NCBI GenBank assembly: GCA_016180525.1
Contig: JACPBB010000002.1
Span: 345,980-409,979 of the forward strand
Length of the DNA: 64,000 nt
Source of the DNA: Parcubacteria group bacterium
Lineage (GTDB): Bacteria; Patescibacteriota; Minisyncoccia; Phycocordibacterales; UBA2135
Reading direction: 5' to 3'
Shown here: piece after piece, positions 4,530 through 58,995 of the stretch
How the letters are laid out: each line of letters opens with the position of its first letter
How positions within the stretch are numbered: position 1 is the first letter of the stretch
Position numbers and translations under genes: made by a program
Notes under the pieces: generated by a model
The model's database searches: none
What the model was told of the DNA's origin: nothing
Seen by the model: the letters and a program-made list of their open reading frames with translations, nothing else

Positions 4530-5032
4530 ATTTACTGCGTATCTATAAGCCGAATTCTGTACCAATCTTGTCCACCGCAGGTGGCCCGGCAAGATTGAGT
4601 ACCTCGCCGAAGCTCCTACTGCGGAGCGAAGGCGGGTCGTCCGCCGTCACATGCTGCGCATGCTCTGGCGAGACGCTCAATTTTGTAACCGCCTCTGGTG
4701 GACAAAATTGGCGATGATTATTTATCTGCCTCGTCTGTTGCCAGACGGGTCAAGCGGCACTCCCAATCGCGCATCGCCATGCGGCGATCACGTGGGCACG
4801 GCCTTGCATGTAGATAGGAATTTAGCTCCGACGCTCTTGCGAGGTCGGAGTCCCGACTTGACGTCGGGACCGTTTCAGCCGGACTTAACCGGGTCGTTTC
4901 TGTTCGCATCCCGTGGATTACTCCAGGTGGGTATTACCCACTACCATCCTCCTCCTATAAGAATATAAAAGGACATGTTCGGACTTTCCTCACCCAGCTG
5001 TAGGTTTTGAAACCCGTAGTTGGGCGCAATCA
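4530..5032 (-). ncRNA. rnpB: RNase P RNA (bacterial type), unusually long (about 500 nt)
   Basis: minus strand carries the P4 5' strand GAGGAAAGUCCGAAC (plus-strand coordinates 4980..4991) and, about 440 nt downstream, the P4 3' strand ACAGAAUUCGGCUUA (4546..4560), in the correct order; non-coding, G+C-rich, hairpin-dense; ends are approximate. Confidence 0.55.
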
Positions 5033-5132
5033 TCTGATACGCAATATCTTTATTATACAATAAGAAGACAAAAATACAAGGAAGCGTTCTTTGCTATGTA
5101 TTGAAAATGAGGCTTCCATTACTATATAATGT

Positions 5133-7555: not shown

Positions 7556-9241
7556 ATGATACAACGTATTTTAAAGACTTTAGAGAAGGAGATAAGCGGC
7601 CTCCATGAGGCCGCGTATCTATTGGGCGTGTTTGCTTTATTTGCAAAAGCTCTCGCTCTTTTTCGGGACAGGCTACTTGCGCACAATTTCGGGGCAAGTG
7701 AAACACTGGATATTTATTATGCTGCCTTTCGTATTCCTGATTTTATTTATATTTCTCTTGCTTCACTCGTCGCTTCCGCAGTGCTTATTCCATTCGTGGT
7801 TTCAAAATTAGAAACAGGCGAGGGGGCACGCCGTTTTTTCAATACCATTTTTACGGTATTTTTTATCGGCATTATTGTCGTCTGCAGTCTCGTGTTCGTG
7901 TTCATGCCGTTTTTATCTGATATTGTTGCTCCGGGCCTTAGCCCTGAAGCCCAAAACGAGCTCATTCTTCTTTCGCGTATCATGCTCTTCTCTCCAATAC
8001 TCCTGGGGCTCTCCGGGCTTTTTGCAAGTATTACGCAAGCTCTGCGGCGTTTTTTTGTCTATGCTTTGAGCCCCATTTTATATAACGCGGGTATTGTAAT
8101 TGGTATTATATTTTTTTATCCTCTGTGGGGTCTTTCGGGCCTCGCCTATGGTGTTGTTTTGGGCGCCGTGCTCCACGCGCTTATTCAAGTTCCTGTGCTT
8201 ATTCGCCAGGGGTTTCTTCCGCGGTTCTCTTTACCTGCACATTTTTTTTCAGAAATAAAAAACGTTTTTCTTCTTTCGCTTCCGCGAACCCTCACACTCT
8301 CAATACATCACCTAGTTCTTCTTGTATTTATTTCATTTGCCTCGCTTATGGGAGAGGGCGCAATTTCCATTTTTAACTTTTCTTTTAATCTTCAATCGGT
8401 ACCGCTCTCTATTATCGGAGTAAGCTATTCCGTTGCGGCATTTCCAACTCTTGCGCGCATGTTTTCAGGCGGCAATCATTCTGCGTTTGTCGCGCAAGTG
8501 TTTTCTTCTTTGCGGCATATTATATTTTGGTCTTTTCCTATTTTGGTTCTTTTTATTGTTTTGCGGGCACAAATCGTAAGAGTCATTCTCGGCACGGGAG
8601 AGTTTGGGTGGCCTGAAACACGTCTTACTGCCGCTGCGCTCGCACTTTTTTCAATTTCAGTTATTGCGCAGAGCGCCATTCTTCTTTTGGTTCGTGGATA
8701 TTATGCCGCGGGTAAAACGAAGGCGCCGCTCGTTATAAACGTCTCCTCATCGCTTCTTATTATCGGACTTGCTTTTCTGTTTATAAAATTATTTACTGTT
8801 TCTGAATTTTTCAAATATTTTATGGAGTCATTGTTTAGAATTTCGGATGTACCCGGCACTGCAATTATTATGCTTCCGCTTGCGTTTTCATTAGGAACAC
8901 TCCTCAATGTATTTATATTGTGGTATTTCTTTAAAAAAGATTTTAGCATTGAACAAACACCGCTTGGAGATACGGTGCGGCATAGTTTTTACGGCTCAAT
9001 CGCGATGGGGTTTGTCGCGTATCAATTTTTGGAAATATTTGACAATGTGTTTGACATAAACACATTTTGGGGAATATTTCTGCAAGGATTTTTCTCCGGC
9101 ATGTTAGGAGTTGTGGCGGGAATATTGTTACTTAAAATTCTCGGCAATAAGGAAATTGCTGAAGTAAGCGCGGCACTGCATCACAGATTTTGGAAAACAA
9201 AACCCGTCGCTCCGGATCAAGGAGACCTTGTGAGCCATTAG
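7556..9241 (+). CDS. murJ: lipid II flippase MurJ (MviN family)
   Basis: 561 aa, 14-TM profile; N-terminal region typical of MurJ (AxxLxxFRDRLLAxxFGASxxLDxYYAAFRIPDF). Confidence 0.8.
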   Translation: MIQRILKTLEKEISGLHEAAYLLGVFALFAKALALFRDRLLAHNFGASETLDIYYAAFRIPDFIYISLASLVASAVLIPFVVSKLETGEGARRFFNTIFTVFFIGIIVVCSLVFVFMPFLSDIVAPGLSPEAQNELILLSRIMLFSPILLGLSGLFASITQALRRFFVYALSPILYNAGIVIGIIFFYPLWGLSGLAYGVVLGAVLHALIQVPVLIRQGFLPRFSLPAHFFSEIKNVFLLSLPRTLTLSIHHLVLLVFISFASLMGEGAISIFNFSFNLQSVPLSIIGVSYSVAAFPTLARMFSGGNHSAFVAQVFSSLRHIIFWSFPILVLFIVLRAQIVRVILGTGEFGWPETRLTAAALALFSISVIAQSAILLLVRGYYAAGKTKAPLVINVSSSLLIIGLAFLFIKLFTVSEFFKYFMESLFRISDVPGTAIIMLPLAFSLGTLLNVFILWYFFKKDFSIEQTPLGDTVRHSFYGSIAMGFVAYQFLEIFDNVFDINTFWGIFLQGFFSGMLGVVAGILLLKILGNKEIAEVSAALHHRFWKTKPVAPDQGDLVSH

Positions 9242-16819: not shown

Positions 16820-16844
16820 AAATGAAATAAACACGCCTGGGTAG
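16820..16844 (+). repeat. 25-bp direct repeat, copy 1 (includes the first 10 nt of a tRNA-Phe 5' end)
   Basis: aaatgaaataaacacgcctgggtag is identical to 17154..17178. Confidence 0.75.
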
Positions 16845-16889
16845 CCCCGACGCGCGAAGCGGTCGGGGTCCCGACCGAAGCGTCGGGAC
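16845..16889. repeat. G+C-rich nested palindromic repeat element (REP-like family copy)
   Basis: ccccgacgcgcgaagcggtcggggtcccgaccgaagcgtcgggac; shared architecture CCGACGC...GGTCGG(G/A)GTCCCGAC...GCGTCGGG with four other copies. Confidence 0.65.
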
Positions 16890-16906
16890 TCAGCCTAAGA
16901 GTATAC

Positions 16907-17164
16907 ATGGCTTACGTCTATATTTTACAAAACGAGAACGGAAGATATTATGTAGGTAGTACCAGTAATTTAGAAAAACGTATGCAACACCACAGAGGTG
17001 GCTATACTCCGTCAACGAGGAGACTGAAAGCGTTTCAGCTAGTTTTTTCTCAAAAATACGACAGCCTTTTTGAGGCACGAGATATTGAACGAAGATTAAA
17101 AAAGTTAAAGCGTCATGATTATCTTCAAAAAATTATTCGCGATGGTAAAATACAAATGAAATAA
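16907..17164 (+). CDS. GIY-YIG nuclease domain protein (free-standing, homing-endonuclease-like)
   Basis: 85 aa; YVYILQNENGRYYVGSTSNLEKRMQHH matches the GIY-x10-YVG-x-T...R...H GIY-YIG catalytic core. Confidence 0.75.
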   Translation: MAYVYILQNENGRYYVGSTSNLEKRMQHHRGGYTPSTRRLKAFQLVFSQKYDSLFEARDIERRLKKLKRHDYLQKIIRDGKIQMK

Positions 17165-17178
17165 ACACGCCTGGGTAG
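17154..17178 (+). repeat. 25-bp direct repeat, copy 2 (overlaps GIY-YIG stop codon and tRNA-Phe 5' end)
   Basis: identical to 16820..16844. Confidence 0.75.
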
Positions 17179-17241
17179 CTCAGTTGGTAGAGCGCTTCCC
17201 TGAAGAGGAATAGGTCGCCAGTTCGATTCTGGCCCCAGGCA
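17169..17241 (+). tRNA. tRNA-Phe (anticodon GAA)
   Basis: manual fold: acceptor gcctggg/cccaggc, D-arm tagctcagttggtagagc, anticodon loop ctGAAga, T-loop ttcgatt. Confidence 0.9.
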
Positions 17242-17249
17242 TCAAAACA

Positions 17250-17283
17250 AAAATCATCCCGACGGCTATCGGGATGATTTTTT
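17250..17283 (+). terminator. hairpin terminator after tRNA-Phe
   Basis: aatcatcccga-cggcta-tcgggatgatt plus tttttt; near-identical hairpin at 56309..56345. Confidence 0.6.
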
Positions 17284-17429
17284 ACACTATTTTTCCCACA
17301 CATTTCCTTGACAAATAGAATTTAATATGTTAAGCTTTAGAAACCACTGAAATGTCTTTGGTGGTTTCTTCTAGGGGAAATCCTAGACCCAGATGGTCAT
17401 TGAAGCGACCAAGAGAAGGGAGACAAGAA

Positions 17430-17681
17430 ATGTTCGGTACATCTCAGGAAGCCAAGAAGGAAGGCTGGTTCTCGCGTCGTCACCGTACGAGCGAGGCGCA
17501 CGACAACGTGCGAAATATGCGCGAGAACAAACGGATTGCTAAACTCAAAGACGCGCGCAAACGTAACGAGGCGGCGGCTAACCGTTCGCCCTGTGAGCAG
17601 ATTCGTCGGCTCGACGAGCGACTCGGTTCCGGAATCGGCGCCAAGAAGGAGCGCGCCCGTCTAGGGGCCCTTGTCGGCTAA
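17430..17681 (+). CDS. small basic protein encoded in a G+C-rich island (hypothetical, compositionally foreign)
   Basis: 83 aa from ATG with gaagggag RBS; codons heavily G/C-ending unlike neighbours; own terminator at 17713..17745. Confidence 0.4.
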   Translation: MFGTSQEAKKEGWFSRRHRTSEAHDNVRNMRENKRIAKLKDARKRNEAAANRSPCEQIRRLDERLGSGIGAKKERARLGALVG

Positions 17682-17712
17682 ATACCCAAAGGACTGAGCA
17701 GGCCAACTGCTT

Positions 17713-17745
17713 CCCGCTATCTCTTCGGACCTAGCGGGTTTTTAC
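17713..17745 (+). terminator. rho-independent terminator
   Basis: cccgcta-tctcttcggacc-tagcggg plus tttttacttttt. Confidence 0.55.
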
Positions 17746-18323
17746 TTTTTCTCCACGCGCTCGGTGTATTCGCCAGACTCTGTGTTTACGCGTACAATAT
17801 CTCCTTCCTCAATGAATAAAGGTACTTGTATTTCCATTTTATTTTCAAGCGTTACTTGTTTCGTGCCGCCTTGCACGGTGTTTCCGCGCACAGCGGGCGG
17901 CGCAGAGACGACTTTTAAGTCAACCTTAACTGGAATTTTAAATGTGATGAGTTTGTCGCTAAAAAAGAGTGCCTCCACATTTGTGTTTGCTCTTAAAAAT
18001 TTTCCTTGCGGCCCCACGACTTCTTCTGAATACGAAAAACGATTTTTTGGGTTTCCGGGTTCGCAAAACCAATATATCCCCCGATTTTCATAAAGATATG
18101 TAAATGTCTGCACAGGCAAATCTGCTTCCACTGCCGTTTCCGACTGATGGAACGAACGCTCGGTTACTTTTCCGGTCATAAGGTTTTTCAGCTTTGTCTG
18201 ATTAACCGGCTTTCGCTGTTGTTTTCTAAATACATGCGAATCAAGCACCTCATAGGGTTCACCATCAAGTACAATGATTTTTTTGTTTGTGATTTCGTTG
18301 TAATTTAACATACGTTGATGCAC
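17742..18323 (-). CDS. efp: translation elongation factor P
   Basis: 193 aa, three-domain EF-P pattern (KPGKG-like N-domain region, OB folds). Confidence 0.8.
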   Translation of the reverse strand: MHQRMLNYNEITNKKIIVLDGEPYEVLDSHVFRKQQRKPVNQTKLKNLMTGKVTERSFHQSETAVEADLPVQTFTYLYENRGIYWFCEPGNPKNRFSYSEEVVGPQGKFLRANTNVEALFFSDKLITFKIPVKVDLKVVSAPPAVRGNTVQGGTKQVTLENKMEIQVPLFIEEGDIVRVNTESGEYTERVEKK

Positions 18324-18507
18324 TTTAGGAGAACTAGGTTAGAGCCTCTCTCCAAGCTCTCAAGGAGCCGTTTATGCTTAATATTGTAGCATCGTGGAGT
18401 TGATTTTACCCGTGTAGATGACTTCAAGACACGGTTTTGGAAGCACTTTGCCCGATACCTCGGTAAAACTCCCATCCAATGTTAGAATCTCTGCTAAACA
18501 GCCCGTT

Positions 18508-18786
18508 TTAGTTAGCGTCTGTACATCTAAAATCCCTATTGGGAGATTCTTCTTTGGCAACTTCAACAAGATGTTCGCATACCTCAATATTATCGGCATA
18601 GCCAAATATGAACATCATCTTTTCCCAACCAATGGTCGACTCCATCATAAACCATTGTGCTGGCAGACCCAATGAGGTTTTTGGATAATTTTCCGCAGCT
18701 TCAAAAATATCCACATTCTTGTAGTAATATCCTGCGAAAAAACTGACCAAAATAGCAATGATTAAAATTAGTATGTTCTTTCTCAT
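18508..18786 (-). CDS. hypothetical membrane-anchored protein (possibly frameshifted with the 18378..18605 ORF)
   Basis: 92-aa ORF with N-terminal TM; overlapping same-strand ORF in another frame suggests a pseudogene or sequencing frameshift. Confidence 0.3.
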   Translation of the reverse strand: MRKNILILIIAILVSFFAGYYYKNVDIFEAAENYPKTSLGLPAQWFMMESTIGWEKMMFIFGYADNIEVCEHLVEVAKEESPNRDFRCTDAN

Positions 18787-18791
18787 AAATA

Positions 18792-19313
18792 TTATTGTAC
18801 CATTTCCATAATTTTTTTCGTTATTTTAAGCAGAGTTTCAATATCGTTCTTCATTTTTTTCGATTCTTCTTGATCAACATTACGCAAAGCATCCTTTCCA
18901 AAATCATATCGTACATCAGTAAAATCTTGCAGTATTATTTGTCTGCCGTCTATTAAATTAACGACATATTTCACAAAACCTGATTCTTTAATCTTTTCAA
19001 TGCTCATTATATCAATTTTCTTCAATGCTTCACTAGATAGCTTCTTTGAGAGCAATTTCAGATCATGTGATTTGATGTCTTCCAAAAGTTCTTCTCTCGA
19101 ATTCAACGAGCTGGCCAGTAAAATACGGGACTTCAACATCAACTCAAAATTATAAGAAAACAAAACATACAATGAACGAGAATAGGCAGCGTCCGTTCCA
19201 CCCCTATGAAAATGCTCAAGACACGCATCAATAAATAAAAACCCCGAATTCGCTCTAAAGACTGCACGCTCTGCAAGAATACTCTTTTTGTCTTTTGTTT
19301 TATCTCCTATCAT
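18792..19313 (-). CDS. hypothetical protein
   Basis: 173-aa ORF, charged, no confident motif; adjacent to tRNA-Arg and a repeat element. Confidence 0.45.
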   Translation of the reverse strand: MIGDKTKDKKSILAERAVFRANSGFLFIDACLEHFHRGGTDAAYSRSLYVLFSYNFELMLKSRILLASSLNSREELLEDIKSHDLKLLSKKLSSEALKKIDIMSIEKIKESGFVKYVVNLIDGRQIILQDFTDVRYDFGKDALRNVDQEESKKMKNDIETLLKITKKIMEMVQ

Positions 19314-19423
19314 CTAGTTTACGTTAAAAAGCAACTCTCTTTCCCTGTATGCAAAATAGCGCATGTTAGAACCTCAAAAAGTTTTGGGAAGAGAACGGTC
19401 TAAGCGCTCAAGCTGCAATTCTA

Positions 19424-19495
19424 TGCTCCCACGAGGAATCGAACCTCGATCATGGGATCCGGAATCCCACATTTTATCCATTAAACTATGGGAGC
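19424..19495 (-). tRNA. tRNA-Arg (anticodon CCG)
   Basis: manual fold: acceptor gctccca/tgggagc, anticodon stem tggga/tccca with loop ttCCGga, T-arm cgagg-ttcgatt-cctcg. Confidence 0.8.
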
Positions 19496-19521
19496 GTGTT
19501 TGGGGTCCATTTGAATTGAAT

Positions 19522-19579
19522 CCCGACGCTCCGCTTGTGAGCGGGGGTCGGGACCCCGACCGGCTTTGCGCGTCGGGGC
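19522..19579. repeat. G+C-rich nested palindromic repeat element (REP-like family copy, inverted relative to the 16845 copy)
   Basis: its reverse complement gccccgacgcgcaaagccggtcggggtcccgacc...gcgtcggga aligns with 16845..16889. Confidence 0.65.
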
Positions 19580-27847: not shown

Positions 27848-29092
27848 TTACTGCAATCGAAGTGTCCCGACCGCCTTTATCATATCTGATTGAGGGGGAA
27901 ACATGCACGAGCTTTGGGTGAGGGTTCCCCGTATGTATCCGACAACTGCAATCATTAAACCGTTATCGGTTGTAAGTTCTGGGGAAGGAATAAAAAGCGC
28001 GGTATCTGAAAAATTGGAAGAAACCGCTTTTGAGAGTTTTTCTCGTATATTTTTATTTGCTGATACTCCGCCGCCGATAACAATTGTTTTTGCCCCATAT
28101 CGCACGGCTGCGTCAATTGTTTTTTTAACAACAACCTCGGTAACTGCTTCTTGAAACTCATGAGAAAATTCCCTAACAAGTTCAGAATTTATTTTTCCTC
28201 CTCGTTTTTTTAATTCATACAACACTGCAGTTTTAATGCCGGAAAAAGAAAAATCAAAATCATCTGAATCAATCATTGGACGAGGGAGTCTTAGTGTTTT
28301 GTCTCCCTTAAATTCATTCGCTTTTTGTGAAACATGCGGGCCCCCAGGATAAGGGAGTTCCAACATGCGGGCAACCTTATCAAATGCCTCACCGATTGCG
28401 TCATCCCTCGTTTCCCCGACAATTTTGTATTGCAGCCAATCTTCTGAAAGCACTAATTCTGTATGCCCACCGGATATCAGTAACGCCAGAAGTGGAAATC
28501 GCACAGGGTATAGCGTATAGCGTTCAGCGTTTAGTTTTTTAAAATTTTGAATTTGTTTAGAAATTAGAAATTTTGAATTAGAAATTTCTTCTCTGCGCAA
28601 TAGCGCAGAGAAGATGTGGCCTTCCATGTGGTTTACGGGAATAATTGGAATATTCCAAACGAGTGAAAGCGCTTTAGTAAAATTAATGCCAACCCAGAGC
28701 GCCGGTTCAAGCCCCGGCCCATAGGTAACTGCGATTGCATCTATATCTGGTTTTTTAATATTTGGAATAAAATCAAGAAATGCTTCCAATAACTCCGGCT
28801 CTCTCGCGAAAAGCATATTGAGCAGTTTTTTTTGTTCAGTAGAAAGGATATTTTTTTGAATTTCAATGTTTCCTCCAAGCGCTTTTTTAAAAAGAGGAAT
28901 CAGATTTTTTGCGTGTTCTCGTTTGGCGAGCGAGGGATACACGCCACCGTATTCAGCGTGCAATTTTACTTGAGAAAGTATCAAGTTTGAAAGCACAGAA
29001 AAAGAGACATCGCCTGTTTTCGAGCTACCCTCGGCTTCCACAAGCGCAAGAGCCGTTTCATCGCACGATGTCTCAATAGAAAGAATTCTCAT
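27848..29092 (-). CDS. tsaD: tRNA N6-adenosine threonylcarbamoyltransferase TsaD (Kae1/YgjD family)
   Basis: 414 aa; N-terminal MRILSIETSCDETALAL, metal-binding HxEGH-type motifs; contains a low-complexity insertion. Confidence 0.8.
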   Translation of the reverse strand: MRILSIETSCDETALALVEAEGSSKTGDVSFSVLSNLILSQVKLHAEYGGVYPSLAKREHAKNLIPLFKKALGGNIEIQKNILSTEQKKLLNMLFAREPELLEAFLDFIPNIKKPDIDAIAVTYGPGLEPALWVGINFTKALSLVWNIPIIPVNHMEGHIFSALLRREEISNSKFLISKQIQNFKKLNAERYTLYPVRFPLLALLISGGHTELVLSEDWLQYKIVGETRDDAIGEAFDKVARMLELPYPGGPHVSQKANEFKGDKTLRLPRPMIDSDDFDFSFSGIKTAVLYELKKRGGKINSELVREFSHEFQEAVTEVVVKKTIDAAVRYGAKTIVIGGGVSANKNIREKLSKAVSSNFSDTALFIPSPELTTDNGLMIAVVGYIRGTLTQSSCMFPPQSDMIKAVGTLRLQ

Positions 29093-41824: not shown

Positions 41825-41909
41825 TGGCGGTGGGTAGAGGGCTCGAACCTCTAAGGGCTTGCGCCCGCCGCTTTTCGAAAGCGGTGCATTACCATTCTGC
41901 CAACCCACC
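41825..41909 (-). tRNA. tRNA-Ser (anticodon CGA), CCA encoded
   Basis: manual fold: acceptor ggtgggt/acccacc, 3-bp D-stem, anticodon loop ttCGAaa, long variable arm cgggcgcaagccc, 3' GCCA. Confidence 0.8.
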
Positions 41910-42593: not shown

Positions 42594-42638
42594 GCTTTTG
42601 CTTTCAAGCCCGGTCTTTCGAACGGGTGTACAATCCTG

Positions 42639-42725
42639 CGGAGGGGGAGAGATTCGAACTCTCGTGAGACTTTCGTCTCCGACGGATTTCGAGTCCGCGC
42701 CGTTAAACCACTCCGGCACCCCTCC
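42639..42725 (-). tRNA. tRNA-Ser (anticodon CGA), second copy
   Basis: manual fold: acceptor ggagggg/cccctcc, 3-bp D-stem, anticodon loop ctCGAaa, long variable arm ggagacgaaagtctc, T-arm gagag-ttcgaat-ctctc. Confidence 0.7.
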
Positions 42726-43661: not shown

Positions 43662-44903
43662 ATGAACAAAGGATTTATCCCCCCACCTTCTCAGAATACC
43701 TCACAGTCTTGCTGTGGAGATGGATGGGTGTTGTACAGATCCTTTCTGAAGGGTCCAATATCTCGCGGGAAGGTGGGGGGATTTATTTCTATTTTTACGC
43801 TTCTTATTATTCTTGGCGTGGTTGGCGTTGGGGTGGTGGGCGCTGTACTTATTGTTAAAACGGGAAATGATAAAAATGACATGGCATCTATTGAAGAGGA
43901 GACAGAAATAGTGGCATCTGAAAATAAAGAGGCAACTTCGTTACCTGTTTCATCAAAGCTTGTCAAAAGCACAGAACAAGGAATTCAAGCGCCAAACACA
44001 ACTCCTTCTGTGGACACCACTCTTCTTAATTTAGAGCGCGAAATTAGTGTTTTGTTTGACGCCAAAGTAGCGATCGGGGAGGAACACTATCTTCTTATTT
44101 TAAAAAATCTTGATAACGCGGAAAAAGAGGGTGGTAATAAAGATACAGTAGCGCGACTGCGAAATATGCTTGAAACAATACATTCGTATGCATCGCTATC
44201 CGCTCCCGAGGAATCGCAAATCACAACAACAGCAGAAGAAGCTCCGATGCCCAAGGGGGTCGGAGTCCCGACCTCGCCAGAAGCGAGCGTCGGGGAAAAA
44301 ACAGAGCCGGTGTCTTGCGCAAACGACACGCGCCCGAAGCTAACCGCAGACATTACCGACTTTTCTAAAATCAGAAAAATTACGGCCCCTGGCAACGCGT
44401 CAGTTGAAGGTCCGAAAGGACACTCGTTTATCTGGACGGGTGGCGCGCGTGTTCCCATCTATGCTCCTGCGAATATTACACTTGAATCTGGCTCATATTC
44501 AAAAGATACCGAGAGTAGTCCGGCGCAGTATCTCCTCTTTTTTGTAGTACAAGAGAATTGCAACTATCGCGTTAAGTTTGACCACATAGATGAGCCGATT
44601 ACATCCATCAGAGAACAATTCTCGGCGACTCCAGCTGTCGCGGACAGTCATACTTCGGAAGTAGTAAACAAAATAAAATTTAACACCGGTGATTTAATTG
44701 GCTACACGTCTGGTACGGTCTCGGCAGGTAATTGGGACTTCGGCATGTATAATTTGAACGAAGAAGGGCCCCTGAAACGAGTTGACAATGTCTTCGGCAT
44801 ACATGGCTACTCGGTGTGCTGGGTGGATTTTTATTCCCCGGATGTAAAAAAATATCAATACAGAAATCTACTTGAAGGCACCACCCTCGTTTGTTTCTTT
44901 TAA
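43662..44903 (+). CDS. hypothetical membrane-anchored secreted protein carrying an in-frame REP-like element
   Basis: 413 aa; N-terminal TM; nt 44244..44294 is a copy of the G+C-rich palindromic repeat and encodes PKGVGVPTSPEASVGEK. Confidence 0.5.
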   Translation: MNKGFIPPPSQNTSQSCCGDGWVLYRSFLKGPISRGKVGGFISIFTLLIILGVVGVGVVGAVLIVKTGNDKNDMASIEEETEIVASENKEATSLPVSSKLVKSTEQGIQAPNTTPSVDTTLLNLEREISVLFDAKVAIGEEHYLLILKNLDNAEKEGGNKDTVARLRNMLETIHSYASLSAPEESQITTTAEEAPMPKGVGVPTSPEASVGEKTEPVSCANDTRPKLTADITDFSKIRKITAPGNASVEGPKGHSFIWTGGARVPIYAPANITLESGSYSKDTESSPAQYLLFFVVQENCNYRVKFDHIDEPITSIREQFSATPAVADSHTSEVVNKIKFNTGDLIGYTSGTVSAGNWDFGMYNLNEEGPLKRVDNVFGIHGYSVCWVDFYSPDVKKYQYRNLLEGTTLVCFF

Positions 44904-56353: not shown

Positions 56354-57742
56354 CTATTCTTTCGCCTCCGTTTTTTCTGGTTCTTTGTGGGAGAGTGTCA
56401 TTCGCTGCTCTGTTGGCTCAAAAAGGGTAATTTTGAATGAATATTTTTTCCCAAGTTCAAGCGCGTCTTTAAGCGCTTTTTCGGTACCGAACTCTGAAAT
56501 ATGATTAAGGCCGGCAACTCCTTCTTCAATAGAGACAAGCGCTCCGTGTTTGTTATGTTTAATCACGACACCATCAACAGTGTCTCCTTTTTTGTATTTT
56601 TTACCCGCGGCCACCCACGGATTTTCTTTAAGTACTTTTATGGAGAGAGAAATTTTGTCTCCTTTTACTTCAATAACCTGCGCCTTCACTTTTTCCCCGA
56701 CTTTAAACAACATGCGCGGATTCTCAACGAGACCCCAATCCATTTCTGAAATATGCACGAGTCCTTCAAGCCCCTCTTCAACTTTCACAAAAGCACCGAA
56801 ATCAACGATACCGGTAATCTCTCCTTCCACAATATCGCCCACTTTGTATTTTTCAACGATTTCACCTTTGCCCTGCTGTTCTGGTCCTTTTTCTGAAAAA
56901 ATGAGCTTCCCTTCTTTTGGCGAGGCAGAGATAATGATGACCTGGAGATTTTTCCCCACAAGTTTTTGAAGTTCAATAAGAATTTTATCCTTATCACCGT
57001 CCAGTACGCGTGGATAATGCTCCGTTTTGAGTTGTGATGCCGGCACAAATCCGGGAATGCCTTGCCACTCTAAAATGAGTCCGCCTTTGTTTGCTTCTTT
57101 AACAGGAAGTTCTAACAATGTTTTGTTACGGATTGCTTCTTCGGCACTGTTCCAGATAAGCGCCTGGCGTGCCTCTTTGAGCGATAGTTCAACATAGCCG
57201 TCTTCGTTTTCCCGCTCCACAACCTTTGCGGTAATATTATCGCCGACATTTATTTTTTTAATAATATCGCTCGCATTTCTAAACTCCCTCCCATAAATGA
57301 TTCCCGTGCCGAACGGGCCAAGGTCAATAAACAATTTTGATTTATCAATTTCTATAACGGGACCGAGAACCAAATCTCCCTCTTCCGGGGGATTTTTAGT
57401 GTTCTCCATAATTTTAACCATTGGATGGCTGGCCATGGGCCGAGCGTTTTGTAAGGGAACATACGCCGCTCTTGATTCAGCGTTCGCAGATTCAAATTTT
57501 TTATCAGATTTTTTTGTGGAGGTGGATACGGGAGGAGAGACAACGGCCTCTTCCGCGACAAGAGATGCCTTTGAAGTTTCTTTAGGTTGCTCTATTTTTT
57601 TTCCGACGCTCGCTTCTGGCGAGATCGGGACCCCGACCCCTTTGGGCGTCGGAGCCTCTTTTACGATAATTTTTTTTGTTTCTTCTTTTCCTTCCTCTTT
57701 TTTAGACTTTTTAAGTTTAAATAATGATTTAATTAACGCCAT
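56354..57742 (-). CDS. rpsA: 30S ribosomal protein S1 (four S1 domains) with N-terminal low-complexity extension carrying an in-frame REP-like element
   Basis: repeated S1 OB-fold units (GxVxGxV...G.F...) across about 350 aa; nt 57603..57651 is a repeat copy encoding PKGVGVPISPEASVGKK. Confidence 0.75.
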   Translation of the reverse strand: MALIKSLFKLKKSKKEEGKEETKKIIVKEAPTPKGVGVPISPEASVGKKIEQPKETSKASLVAEEAVVSPPVSTSTKKSDKKFESANAESRAAYVPLQNARPMASHPMVKIMENTKNPPEEGDLVLGPVIEIDKSKLFIDLGPFGTGIIYGREFRNASDIIKKINVGDNITAKVVERENEDGYVELSLKEARQALIWNSAEEAIRNKTLLELPVKEANKGGLILEWQGIPGFVPASQLKTEHYPRVLDGDKDKILIELQKLVGKNLQVIIISASPKEGKLIFSEKGPEQQGKGEIVEKYKVGDIVEGEITGIVDFGAFVKVEEGLEGLVHISEMDWGLVENPRMLFKVGEKVKAQVIEVKGDKISLSIKVLKENPWVAAGKKYKKGDTVDGVVIKHNKHGALVSIEEGVAGLNHISEFGTEKALKDALELGKKYSFKITLFEPTEQRMTLSHKEPEKTEAKE

Positions 57743-58094
57743 ATTATAATGTAGTAAAAGACTGTTTCCTCCTTACTTGTAACTGGCAACTAGCCACTAA
57801 CTATTAACAACCAATGAAAGGTGGGGTTAGACAATCTTTTGCTGATAAAAAGCGCTTATGCGCACAATGGGTATTAGTATATCTAAAAGAAAATAAAATG
57901 CAAAAAAGAACACGGCCGTAATTGGCCGTGTATTAGTGAGCATATACAGCTTCAAAGGTTTCCCTCCACTGCACATGCAACTCCTTTCTTCTCTGTCGTG
58001 CGGATTTTTCGGTCAGTTGCGCCGAAAGTCTTACCCCCGAGGAAGACTTTTATGGCGCGGGGCGGGTGAGCGGGGGTGCCTTGCCGAGCGGTCG

Positions 58095-58277
58095 TTAGGC
58101 GGTCTTGTTGGCGCCGGCAATGCCCGCGATGTTGAGATGGGCATTGACGCCGAACGAGGTGCCGGCGGTGATGAAGCCGTTGTCGGTGTCGGTCGTGGCG
58201 ATAAAGGTCGAGTTCTTGCCGGGTGGTCGCACGGGAATCTCCCTTGCTTTGGCGAGGTTGGAACGACTCTGGCACAA
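58095..58277 (-). CDS. small ORF (60 aa) with strongly G/C-ending codons inside a G+C-rich island; hypothetical, compositionally foreign
   Basis: in this frame third codon positions are almost all G/C (gcc, acc, gac, ggc, ttc, atc...), whereas the antisense frame shows the complementary bias. Confidence 0.3.
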   Translation of the reverse strand: MCQSRSNLAKAREIPVRPPGKNSTFIATTDTDNGFITAGTSFGVNAHLNIAGIAGANKTA

Positions 58278-58380
58278 GATCTGCCAAAGGTACCCCTATT
58301 ATATACCCCTCAAAATAAAAGTCAATCTTAATAATAGAACCCCCTAGACCCTATACCTCATACCTTATATACTAATATTC

Positions 58381-58995
58381 ATGGTCATCACATATCACGG
58401 AAATCAGTTTTTCAAAATCCAGCAAGGAGACACGCTTCTTGTGTTTAATCCACCGGCAGACGTAAATCGTTTTGGCGCTACCGTTGGACTTTCAACACTT
58501 AATGATAGTGATTTTAACGGTTTAGAACATCTTTCCCACGGAGACAAACAGCCGCTTCTCATTTCAGGGCCTGGAGAATATGAAATCAAAGGAATTTTTA
58601 TACAGGGCTTTGGCGTTCCGATCACTTATAAAAAAGAAGAAAAAATAAACACGGTTTATTATTTAACCCTTGAGGGAGTGCGCATTTGTTTTCTTGGGGC
58701 GCTTTCCAAAACAACATTTTCCGAGGAAATTGAGGAGAACATCTCTGAAGTTGATTTGTTGTTTGTGCCAATCGGAGGTGGAGATGTGCTTACACCCACT
58801 GACGCGTATAAAGTGGGCCAATTTTTTGAAGCAAAAATAATTATTCCCATGCATTATGAAAAAGAGGGCGCTCCGCAGTTGAAAAAGTTTTTGGAAGAAT
58901 CTGGAGAGAAAGTTGCTCCGACTGATAAACTTGCCATACGCAAAAAAGATTTTGAAGGAAAGGAAGGAGAAGTTATAGTACTTAAACAAGTTTAA
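58381..58995 (+). CDS. metallo-beta-lactamase-fold protein (UPF0173/UlaG-like), His motif partly degenerate
   Basis: MVITYHGNQFF...LLVFNP resembles the MKITYHGHS...ILIDP start of UPF0173 MBL-fold hydrolases. Confidence 0.5.
   Translation: MVITYHGNQFFKIQQGDTLLVFNPPADVNRFGATVGLSTLNDSDFNGLEHLSHGDKQPLLISGPGEYEIKGIFIQGFGVPITYKKEEKINTVYYLTLEGVRICFLGALSKTTFSEEIEENISEVDLLFVPIGGGDVLTPTDAYKVGQFFEAKIIIPMHYEKEGAPQLKKFLEESGEKVAPTDKLAIRKKDFEGKEGEVIVLKQV

Follow-up and report, generated by a model that had tools for sequence, protein, structure and literature searches.

In a 64,000-nucleotide (nt) stretch from a Parcubacteria group bacterium (contig JACPBB010000002.1, positions 345,980 to 409,979; the whole stretch is referred to as the window), the five G+C-rich repeats proved to be genuine copies of a DNA element of 44-58 bases that is apparently undescribed and consists of two hairpins standing side by side. 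We consider it probable that this is a structure-defined mobile element of the candidate phyla radiation (CPR, Patescibacteria), possibly mobilised by a small GIY-YIG nuclease. The element is inserted as a discrete unit without target-site duplication, usually just 3' of AG or AA, and it is tolerated where harm is small i.e. in protein linkers and tails, where its length is a multiple of three, at gene ends and in tRNA leaders. Four of the copies in the window are denoted EL2 to EL5, and the fifth is situated in the gene for RNase P RNA (coordinates in Table 1).

The five repeats had been listed in an original prediction made from the letters of the window, and all of them were recovered. A 15-mer core, GGTCGGRGTCCCGAC, allowing up to 2 mismatches, matched at just these five loci, while 0.06 matches were expected from dinucleotide-preserving shuffles. 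The pattern CCGAYGC-N(10-40)-CGTCGG matched four of the five copies (0.06 expected) and missed the copy at 19522, which has a longer spacer. A generic search of the whole window for two consecutive CCGAY...RTCGG hairpins found no copies beyond the five. A partial arm had also been proposed at 27861-27880; this region shares the 9-mer GTCCCGACC alone, stands beside an ordinary terminator hairpin and was not counted as a copy. The exact limits of the element were set from the tRNA junctions, where the uninterrupted target sequence is known. The elements are indeed strikingly G+C-rich (~75%), but the genome around them is just moderately AT-rich and not plainly so as had been stated, since the G+C content of the window is 42%. 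Counted singly, CCGAY...RTCGG hairpins gave 38 matches in the window against 6.9 in mononucleotide shuffles, and 20 of the 38 belong to the five elements.

The element is made up of exactly two abutting hairpins, each of the form NN-CCGAC...GTCGG-N'N', with an overall length of 36-70 nt. An alignment of 82 copies, in which the arms are invariant and the loops variable, was used for the analysis of covariation. The first hairpin (H1) is described by Y-CCGAC(G)C-x-G-GTCGG-R and the second (H2) by (G)T-CCCGAC-N-y-N'(C)-GTCGGG-A, where the extrahelical G in H1 and the extrahelical C in H2 are both invariant. For EL2 this reads CC-CCGAC(G)C-GCGAAGC-G-GTCGG-GG followed by TC-CCGAC-CGAAG(C)-GTCGG-GA. 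With this tandem model 97.7% of the cells pair, none of 500 shuffles reached the observed value, and slid controls collapsed. The closing base pairs and the loop-proximal stems covary. The covarying pairs 4-30 (CG 47, UA 28, other 5) and 39-49 (CG 40, UA 25, AU 7, UG 4, other 3) lie at positions left free by the search pattern. A nested architecture, with an outer inverted repeat enclosing an inner hairpin, had been expected from the window copies; this fold was rejected, as pair 11-49 is unpaired in 36 of 80 sequences and 31 G-U pairs would be needed at 24-39.

Energy folding with DNA parameters gave the tandem double hairpin for all five copies in the window, from -15.8 to -21.0 kcal/mol with z-scores of -2.8 to -4.6 (EL2: -17.2 kcal/mol, z = -2.8; EL3: -21.0 kcal/mol, z = -3.8; EL4: -20.1 kcal/mol, z = -4.5). 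The loop denoted x is commonly GCGAAGC or CCGAAGG, and d(GCGAAGC) forms a DNA mini-hairpin of unusual stability. The element has no stop codon in any frame. A role as terminator was rejected for the five window copies, none of which has a T-run on its 3' side. A known RNA family was likewise rejected, as no match to Rfam 15 was obtained at the gathering threshold or at E <= 1, save for RNase P itself.

We scanned 185,579 species-representative genomes with the pattern CCGAYGC-N(4-12)-GGTCGGRGTCCCGAY and obtained at least 118 loci. All counts for the family given in the following are among these listed matches. About 110 of the loci have the full element including the 3' arm, which is absent from the search pattern, and 8 are chance matches in high-G+C DNA where this arm is missing. 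Nearly all hosts are metagenome-assembled genomes (MAGs) of CPR/Patescibacteria (Saccharibacteria, Nomura-, Kaiser-, Zambryski-, Lipton-, Adler-, Yanofsky-, Nealson-, Doudna- and Berkelbacteria, Paceibacterota) together with a few Omnitrophota, and several genomes are represented more than once. Carriage by phages was rejected, as none of the 2.9 million viral contigs in IMG/VR holds a copy. A search of open-access literature found no mention of the core sequence and no description of such repeats in CPR.

Well inside long open reading frames (ORFs, here stop-to-stop and at least 150 amino acids) we found 49 of the 110 listed copies (~45%), in all six combinations of frame and orientation (31 in one orientation and 18 in the other), and many other listed copies lie within a few codons of an ORF end. 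The length of the element is a multiple of three in 38 of the 49 copies inside ORFs (binomial p = 3e-10) as opposed to 25 of 61 elsewhere (Fisher p = 2e-4). When ten host ORFs were checked against Pfam, nine were core genes. The hosts include GyrB, a beta-CASP RNase (RNase J-like), UvrB, DnaK and a CCA-adding enzyme/poly(A) polymerase, and further RecG, DnaX, the NAD-dependent ligase LigA and PheT. The hinge of ribosomal protein L7/L12 carries the element as '...AAAPMFAPTLAVGVPTPGVGTGEEK...', and the N-terminal tail of S1 from another lineage carries it, independently of the window, as 'MSLFSFGKKAPTLEEVGVPTQPEAGVGKEIKK'.

Two of the window copies are of this kind. EL4 encodes APMPKGVGVPTSPEASVG in a variable linker of a 413-amino acid protein (ORF413), and EL5 encodes APTPKGVGVPISPEASVG in the N-terminal tail of S1 (56354-57742, minus strand). 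The two copies are ~92% identical with both loops included and share in addition ~14 nt of the right flank; they are the result of recent copying within the genome. The peptide of EL5 is missing from all of the top 120 homologues of S1 (at most 80% identical), and that of EL4 from all 50 homologues of ORF413, where the alignment displays a clean insertion. This absence holds at the protein level, as the closest relatives are 80% (S1) and 50% (ORF413) identical and the low-complexity host region differs, which precludes a precise alignment of the empty site. Judged by these comparisons, the presence of the element inside conserved genes is lineage-specific.

The junctions are best defined at tRNA targets, where the intact tRNA next door serves as reference. 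Here the insert corresponds to exactly the two hairpins with 0 duplicated bases, and the insertion points are GTAG^CTCA, CTCAG^TTGG and GTTCAA^CGGATAG. GTAG precedes the element solely at targets in the tRNA D-stem, and the flank across all listed copies is AG or AA: the left flank is one of the two in 81 of 110 copies, with AG alone accounting for 61. Purine-rich flanks on both sides are seen in 26 of the 110. Approximately 14 of the listed copies stand in contexts of tRNA fragments and 4 in RNase P RNA.

It had been noted that two copies in the window lie next to tRNA-Phe and tRNA-Arg-CCG genes. Both neighbours were confirmed by ARAGORN, but the proximity is not incidental, since the element interrupts a duplicated 5' fragment of a tRNA. 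EL2 interrupts such a tRNA-Phe fragment after nt 10 (GTAG^CTCAG), 18 nt upstream of the start codon of a stand-alone GIY-YIG gene. The last codons and the stop codon of this gene lie inside the right one of two direct repeats, and the intact tRNA-Phe starts 5 nt after the stop codon. EL3 interrupts a degenerate tRNA-Arg-like 5' fragment after nt 10 (GCCCCCGTAG^TTCAAT..TGGA), ~25 nt upstream of tRNA-Arg-CCG, and has no ORF. The order of the cassette is a leader with tRNA nt 1-10 or 1-15, the element, the next ~10 nt of the D-arm, a GIY-YIG ORF of ~85 amino acids, and the leader with the intact tRNA. Downstream of the intact tRNA-Phe, at 17254-17285, a terminator-like hairpin has a similar arm, atcatCCCGAcggcTATCGGGatgat, followed by a T-run.

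The 85-amino acid protein matches PF01541 (E = 3.7e-15, residues 1-70), and the nearest solved structures are UPF0213 proteins (1zg2, E = 7e-11). Y5, Y15, G17, R25, H29 and E61 are invariant among its relatives, the catalytic Tyr, Tyr, Arg, His and Glu being intact. ORFs within 1.5 kb of the element were clustered for the listed loci, and the sole recurrent family that is not housekeeping was this small GIY-YIG protein. A TnpA-REP-like Y1/HUH enzyme had been suggested as the partner of the repeat; no transposase-like family, REP-associated tyrosine transposases (RAYT) and Y1/HUH enzymes included, recurred within this distance among the at least 118 listed loci. Three loci (L087, L090 and L098) have the cassette architecture of the window with different tRNAs. 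In L087 (3251-3260) and L098 (~4838-4850, minus strand) the reading frame of the GIY-YIG protein continues into the tRNA gene and takes as its stop codon the TAG of G-TAG-CTCA, i.e. tRNA nt 8-10.

As a test in the reverse direction, a metagenome scan was carried out with a five-member GIY-YIG alignment, from which 80 loci were chosen by the protein alone. A tRNA on the same strand, from 4 nt before to 120 nt after the end of the ORF, is present in 69 of the 80 loci, and the adjacent tRNAs cover Phe, Met, Asn, Arg, Thr, Lys, His, Val, Ile, Ala and Pro. In many of them the ORF end abuts or overlaps the 5' end of the tRNA by 0-4 nt. The strict core was found within 200 nt upstream in 30 of the 80, with 27 located at -37 to -74. 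A generic CCGAC double hairpin within 120 nt upstream was found in 57, where ~0.9 would be expected from its density elsewhere in these loci. Nearly all loci share an upstream layout in which a tRNA 5' fragment is followed by the hairpins and these by ~10 further nt of the D-arm, the fragment being commonly identical over 8-16 nt to the downstream tRNA; several have a single hairpin or extra nested hairpins. The D-arm remainder seen behind EL2 is also present in L087, L090, L098 and most of L119-L198.

Among 58 upstream copies the closing dinucleotides are fully paired in 43, and the CCGAC/GTCGG arms are fixed. Examples of subtypes of the closing pairs are CC..GG|TC..GA, AG..CT|CT..AG, CC..GG|AG..CT and GG..CC|TC..GA. 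As the closing pairs vary and covary while the arms are fixed, the broader class has several subtypes, and the canonical element seen in the window is one of them.

Two further arrangements were observed at tRNA genes. In L189 (~730-860) and L197 (~600-730) a near-complete tRNA-like sequence upstream of the GIY-YIG ORF has the anticodon arm replaced by a single CCGAY hairpin, unlike the usual insertion in the D-arm. In L002 (2200-2441), from an Omnitrophota MAG, a tandem array stands directly upstream of an intact tRNA-Thr without a nuclease ORF, and its unit comprises tRNA-Thr nt 1-15, the element, TTGGTAGA and a 21-nt leader.

The copy in the RNase P RNA gene differs from the others. On the RNA strand Infernal aligns it to RF00010 positions ~161-205, which are helices P13 and P14, as GUCCCGAC-GUCAA-GUCGGGAC and UCCGACCUC-GCAA-GAGCGUCGGA, with the flanking junctions in register (UGAAAcG before and AGCUAAAU after). 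The same module is found at the same place in the RNase P RNA of three other genera, represented by a Nealsonbacteria, a Yanofskybacteria and a Paceibacterota MAG (L042, L046 and L070 with 161.1, 103.9 and 141.4 bits), where P14 keeps a GCAA or similar tetraloop. The genomes with this kind of P13/P14 form a group of Paceibacteria type. Since its position is conserved across genera, this copy is structural and a functional part of the ribozyme rather than a recent insertion. It has its arms, the two bulges and an AG left flank in common with more than 100 dispersed copies. Two origins are conceivable: P13/P14 of an ancestor may have been displaced by an element, or the RNase P module may be the source of the family. 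The RNase P RNA gene of the window is 516 nt long compared to a 367-nt model; it has a ~126-nt insertion near model position 335/336 (~4592-4720), an enlarged P3 loop and a shortened P12.

Table 1. Features of the double-hairpin element and its surroundings (positions refer to the window unless a locus is named).
Feature	Position	Strand	Description
RNase P RNA gene, bacterial type A	4530..5045	-	RF00010, 104.7 bits (gathering score 100)
RNase P copy of the element	4826..4869	-	Forms P13/P14 of RNase P RNA
Left direct repeat	16820..16845	+	26 nt, aaatgaaataaacacGCCTGGGTAGC; 15-nt tRNA-Phe leader and tRNA nt 1-11
EL2	16845..16888	+	44 nt; core match, DNA fold
D-arm remainder and short spacer	16889..16906	+	Diverged; CTCAGCCTAAGAGTA vs CTCAGTTGGTAGAGC in the intact tRNA
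GIY-YIG nuclease gene, stand-alone	16907..17164	+	85 amino acids; Pfam PF01541
Right direct repeat	17154..17179	+	26 nt, identical to the left repeat; runs into the intact tRNA-Phe
tRNA-Phe(GAA), intact	17169..17241	+	ARAGORN; Rfam tRNA, 70.2 bits
tRNA-Arg(CCG), intact, downstream of EL3	19424..19495	-	ARAGORN, Rfam
EL3	19521..19578	-	58 nt; second hairpin extended (CCCGCTCACAAGCGG)
EL4	44242..44295	+	54 nt = 18 codons, in frame in ORF 43662-44903
EL5	57601..57654	-	54 nt = 18 codons, in frame in ribosomal protein S1
Element loci in L7/L12 and S1	L001 878-1291; L051 3543-4727; L093 6227-7429

The original prediction of a small non-autonomous mobile palindromic repeat is borne out to the extent that the element is dispersed, multi-copy and lineage-specific in conserved genes; it does not extend to the RNase P copy with its structural role. 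In the mechanism that we propose, the hairpins would extrude from single-stranded or cruciform DNA and would be recognised and cut by the domain-only GIY-YIG nuclease (UPF0213/Slx1-like). As the 85-amino acid protein consists of the domain only, it is more likely to be structure-specific than sequence-specific. Repair of the break or recombination would then place copies of the element at new sites, the ORF being included or not, and the non-autonomous derivatives would be represented by the solo copies in genes. The cassette may be the product of a single crossover with a circle carrying an element-interrupted tRNA 5' half, and the duplicated tRNA 5' end would allow the ORF to be expressed from the tRNA leader while the tRNA is left intact. 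Taken alone, this mechanism is tentative, and we give it somewhat less than an even chance. A wider proposal joins the parts: the double hairpin and the 85-amino acid GIY-YIG protein might be a new class of bacterial mobile element with an autonomous cassette that enters tRNA leaders through duplication of the tRNA 5' end, a structure-only derivative that has spread in frame into essential protein genes throughout the CPR, and one copy that is either domesticated as P13/P14 or ancestral. As part of the same proposal, pre-tRNA transcripts might be tethered to RNase P by the leader copies, whose orientation is antisense with respect to the RNase P copy. We regard this combined proposal as speculative and on balance somewhat unlikely.

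Several observations weigh against a mobile element that is moved by the nuclease. Neither an excision footprint nor a circle junction or strain-level polymorphism was observed, and the case for mobility comes from the distribution of the copies. Just ~5% of the canonical copies found by the DNA pattern adjoin a GIY-YIG gene, and a separate DNA-binding domain is lacking in the 85-amino acid protein. Copies from one genome resemble each other in their loops no more than copies from different genomes do (p = 0.39, EL4/EL5 excepted), so most copies look old despite their intact arms, possibly because selection keeps each of them for a function. Between orthologous sites the identity is 89-100% for the element as opposed to 46-78% for the flanks, a comparison biased by ascertainment, as the loci were found by the arm pattern. 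The shared ~14-nt flank of EL4 and EL5 suggests templated copying and not clean transposition. Of the host genes, defined as stop-to-stop ORFs, just 12 were verified as real genes. Finally, the RNase P copy is clearly a functional part of an RNA.

In one alternative the element is mobile but is moved by an activity other than the GIY-YIG protein, for example a Y1/HUH transposase of RAYT type that escaped detection, slippage during host replication or repair mediated by microhomology. The co-occurrence with the nuclease would then arise from a common preference for the conserved D-arm of tRNA genes, or from a service of the element to the cassette in cis, for instance as a stabiliser of the 5' untranslated region or by disrupting, in the upstream fragment, the target of the nuclease itself. 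A nuclease gene is missing near most of the solo copies, and tRNA-leader copies without an ORF exist (EL3, L002 and L076). Insertion at a fixed dinucleotide without duplication, together with the bulged hairpins, resembles the single-strand transposition of IS200/IS605 and of repetitive extragenic palindromic (REP) elements with RAYT, and the purine-rich flanks of EL4, EL5 and the other copies of that kind are compatible with microhomology-templated copying. However, no transposase-like family recurs near the element in the listed loci, the element is fixed 37-74 nt upstream of the nuclease start in the loci chosen by protein with almost none elsewhere in them, and within cassettes the CCGAC arms are retained in every one of the numerous closing-pair subtypes. 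We judge another mover to be unlikely, though it is the strongest of the alternatives.

The apparent age of the copies is also what a functional RNA module would give, i.e. a coaxial double hairpin resembling P13/P14 that is used in RNase P RNA, in the leaders of pre-tRNAs and in mRNAs, with its arms kept by selection and not by mobility. It would act as a signal for processing, stability or protein binding, or through antisense leader copies pairing with the RNase P copy. The exact correspondence to P13/P14, kept in position in four genomes and with a GCAA tetraloop in P14, speaks for this explanation, and so do the drifting loops between invariant arms, the compensatory changes at orthologous sites such as L083/L097, and leader copies that mostly have one orientation relative to the tRNA. 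Copies inside ORFs, on the other hand, occur in both orientations and all frames, they are absent from close orthologues of the same genes, and in unrelated essential proteins an RNA signal has no obvious role. The missing T-run speaks against a terminator and the Rfam search against a catalogued family, while the frequent GCGAAGC and CCGAAGG loops, given the stability of the GCGAAGC mini-hairpin, fit a role at the DNA level. An RNA module in this sense is quite improbable. That a conserved peptide motif (PTPxGVGVPT..SVG) is selected at the protein level and its intergenic look-alikes are coincidental, as the almost identical 18 residues encoded in the same frame by EL4 and EL5 might suggest, is refuted by copies read in five other combinations of frame and orientation as unrelated peptides, as well as by invariant synonymous positions and by the same DNA in tRNA leaders and RNase P RNA, and its probability is negligible.

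With a structure-defined mobile element of CPR as the preferred explanation, we compared it to known systems and place it among the small palindromic mobile repeats, where its conservation of sequence across CPR, its role as P13/P14 of RNase P and the GIY-YIG cassettes in tRNA leaders are unusual. Its behaviour in genes resembles that of the Rickettsia palindromic elements (RPE), which are palindromic repeats of a reduced-genome bacterium found in frame in unrelated housekeeping genes as well as in non-coding regions (PMC10969869). The likeness lies in the in-frame insertion that adds a peptide segment to unrelated genes, as reflected here in the 38 of 49 lengths that are multiples of three. 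RPE-1 to RPE-10 are set apart by their description as ~100-150 bp elements of Rickettsia with a different sequence, compared to 36-70 nt in many lineages of CPR, and they have no defined two-hairpin CCGAC architecture and no known link to GIY-YIG proteins or tRNA 5' fragments.

In organelles, the GC42 clusters of yeast mitochondria have stems that are more conserved than the loops and an AG target dinucleotide (PMC4478555), and mitochondrial double-hairpin elements were reported by Paquin et al. 2000, as cited in PMC7218506. Both are short G+C-rich hairpin units in an A+T-richer genome and are considered mobile, and by covariation and folding the CPR element is likewise a dispersed unit of two adjacent hairpins. 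This is a resemblance in architecture and function only; the systems are organellar and their sequences apparently unrelated. GC42 is reported with a duplicated AG whereas the CPR element has no duplication at tRNA targets, and no tRNA-leader cassette architecture is described for the organellar elements in the accounts cited. The CPR cassette pairs its hairpins with a nuclease gene. The elements of Allomyces also adjoin a mobile endonuclease ORF and occur in rRNA and protein genes.

A likeness to REP elements or to MITEs (transposable elements of the miniature inverted-repeat type) had been proposed for the repeats and is not upheld. The CPR element has in common with REP/RAYT and with IS200/IS605 the short imperfect bulged palindromes, the high copy number and a fixed short flank without duplication. 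A single-stranded DNA hairpin is the presumed substrate in those systems, which also follow a logic of autonomous and solo copies. REP elements are confined to extragenic space, consist of one hairpin with a conserved 5' tetranucleotide (GTAG) beside it, and flank the gene of their cognate RAYT. The CPR unit has two hairpins and is often found within long ORFs; the enzyme linked to it is a GIY-YIG protein, and no Y1/HUH gene recurs within 1.5 kb of it in the listed loci. Bacterial MITEs (Correia/NEMIS, ERIC, RUP, BOX) are small and non-autonomous, can be co-transcribed and are occasionally located within genes (PMC10969869). They have terminal inverted repeats, target-site duplications and a parent insertion sequence, none of which was seen for the CPR element; in the listed loci the sole linked ORF encodes the GIY-YIG protein, and the element stands on one side of it only.

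With respect to the nuclease, SegB of phage T4 is encoded by a GIY-YIG gene among tRNA genes and spreads with the flanking tRNA DNA (PMC2330249). The CPR cassette likewise has a GIY-YIG gene beside a tRNA gene. SegB differs in being a phage enzyme of larger size that is site-specific and has DNA-binding regions, and neither a double hairpin nor a duplicated tRNA 5' fragment goes with it; the CPR protein is a chromosomal 85-amino acid domain of UPF0213 type. Compared to GIY-YIG homing endonucleases in general, it has the catalytic domain with its residues intact and lacks the separate DNA-binding domain. As for the RNA, P13/P14 of type A RNase P are two adjacent coaxial hairpins at the same position of the specificity domain. 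In other bacteria these helices share no sequence with dispersed genomic repeats, while the module in the window does.

CPR/Patescibacteria have tiny genomes in which repeats are little studied. An element of 45 nt whose arms are conserved in many CPR lineages and which is tolerated in GyrB, DnaK, S1, L7/L12 and further core proteins offers a cheap marker as well as a source of variation in protein linkers. The fixed place that the element has in the GIY-YIG cassettes of tRNA leaders suggests what the uncharacterised nucleases of UPF0213 type may do, and the layout is a possible way for nuclease genes to sit before essential tRNAs without destroying them. The identity of the repeat with P13/P14 would mean a ribozyme domain built from mobile DNA, or mobile DNA built from a ribozyme. 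In L106 (minus strand) two elements stand in tandem, and near 7789, within this pair, the assembly is broken by a stretch of N; such repeats would accordingly seem to disrupt short-read assembly of CPR genomes, and the element is a likely cause of breaks of this kind.

Two features of the window stand apart from the element. Between the S1 gene and ORF 58381-58995 there is an island of ~300 nt (58000-58290) with 63-67% G+C, the minus strand of which reads '...STFIATTDTDNGFITAGTSFGVNAHLNIAGIAGANKTA'; it matched neither Rfam nor tRNA or tmRNA models and could be a fragment of a foreign gene or an RNA of a new type. Additionally, two tRNA-Ser genes with the same CGA anticodon are found ~800 nt apart on the minus strand (41825-41909 and 42638-42725).

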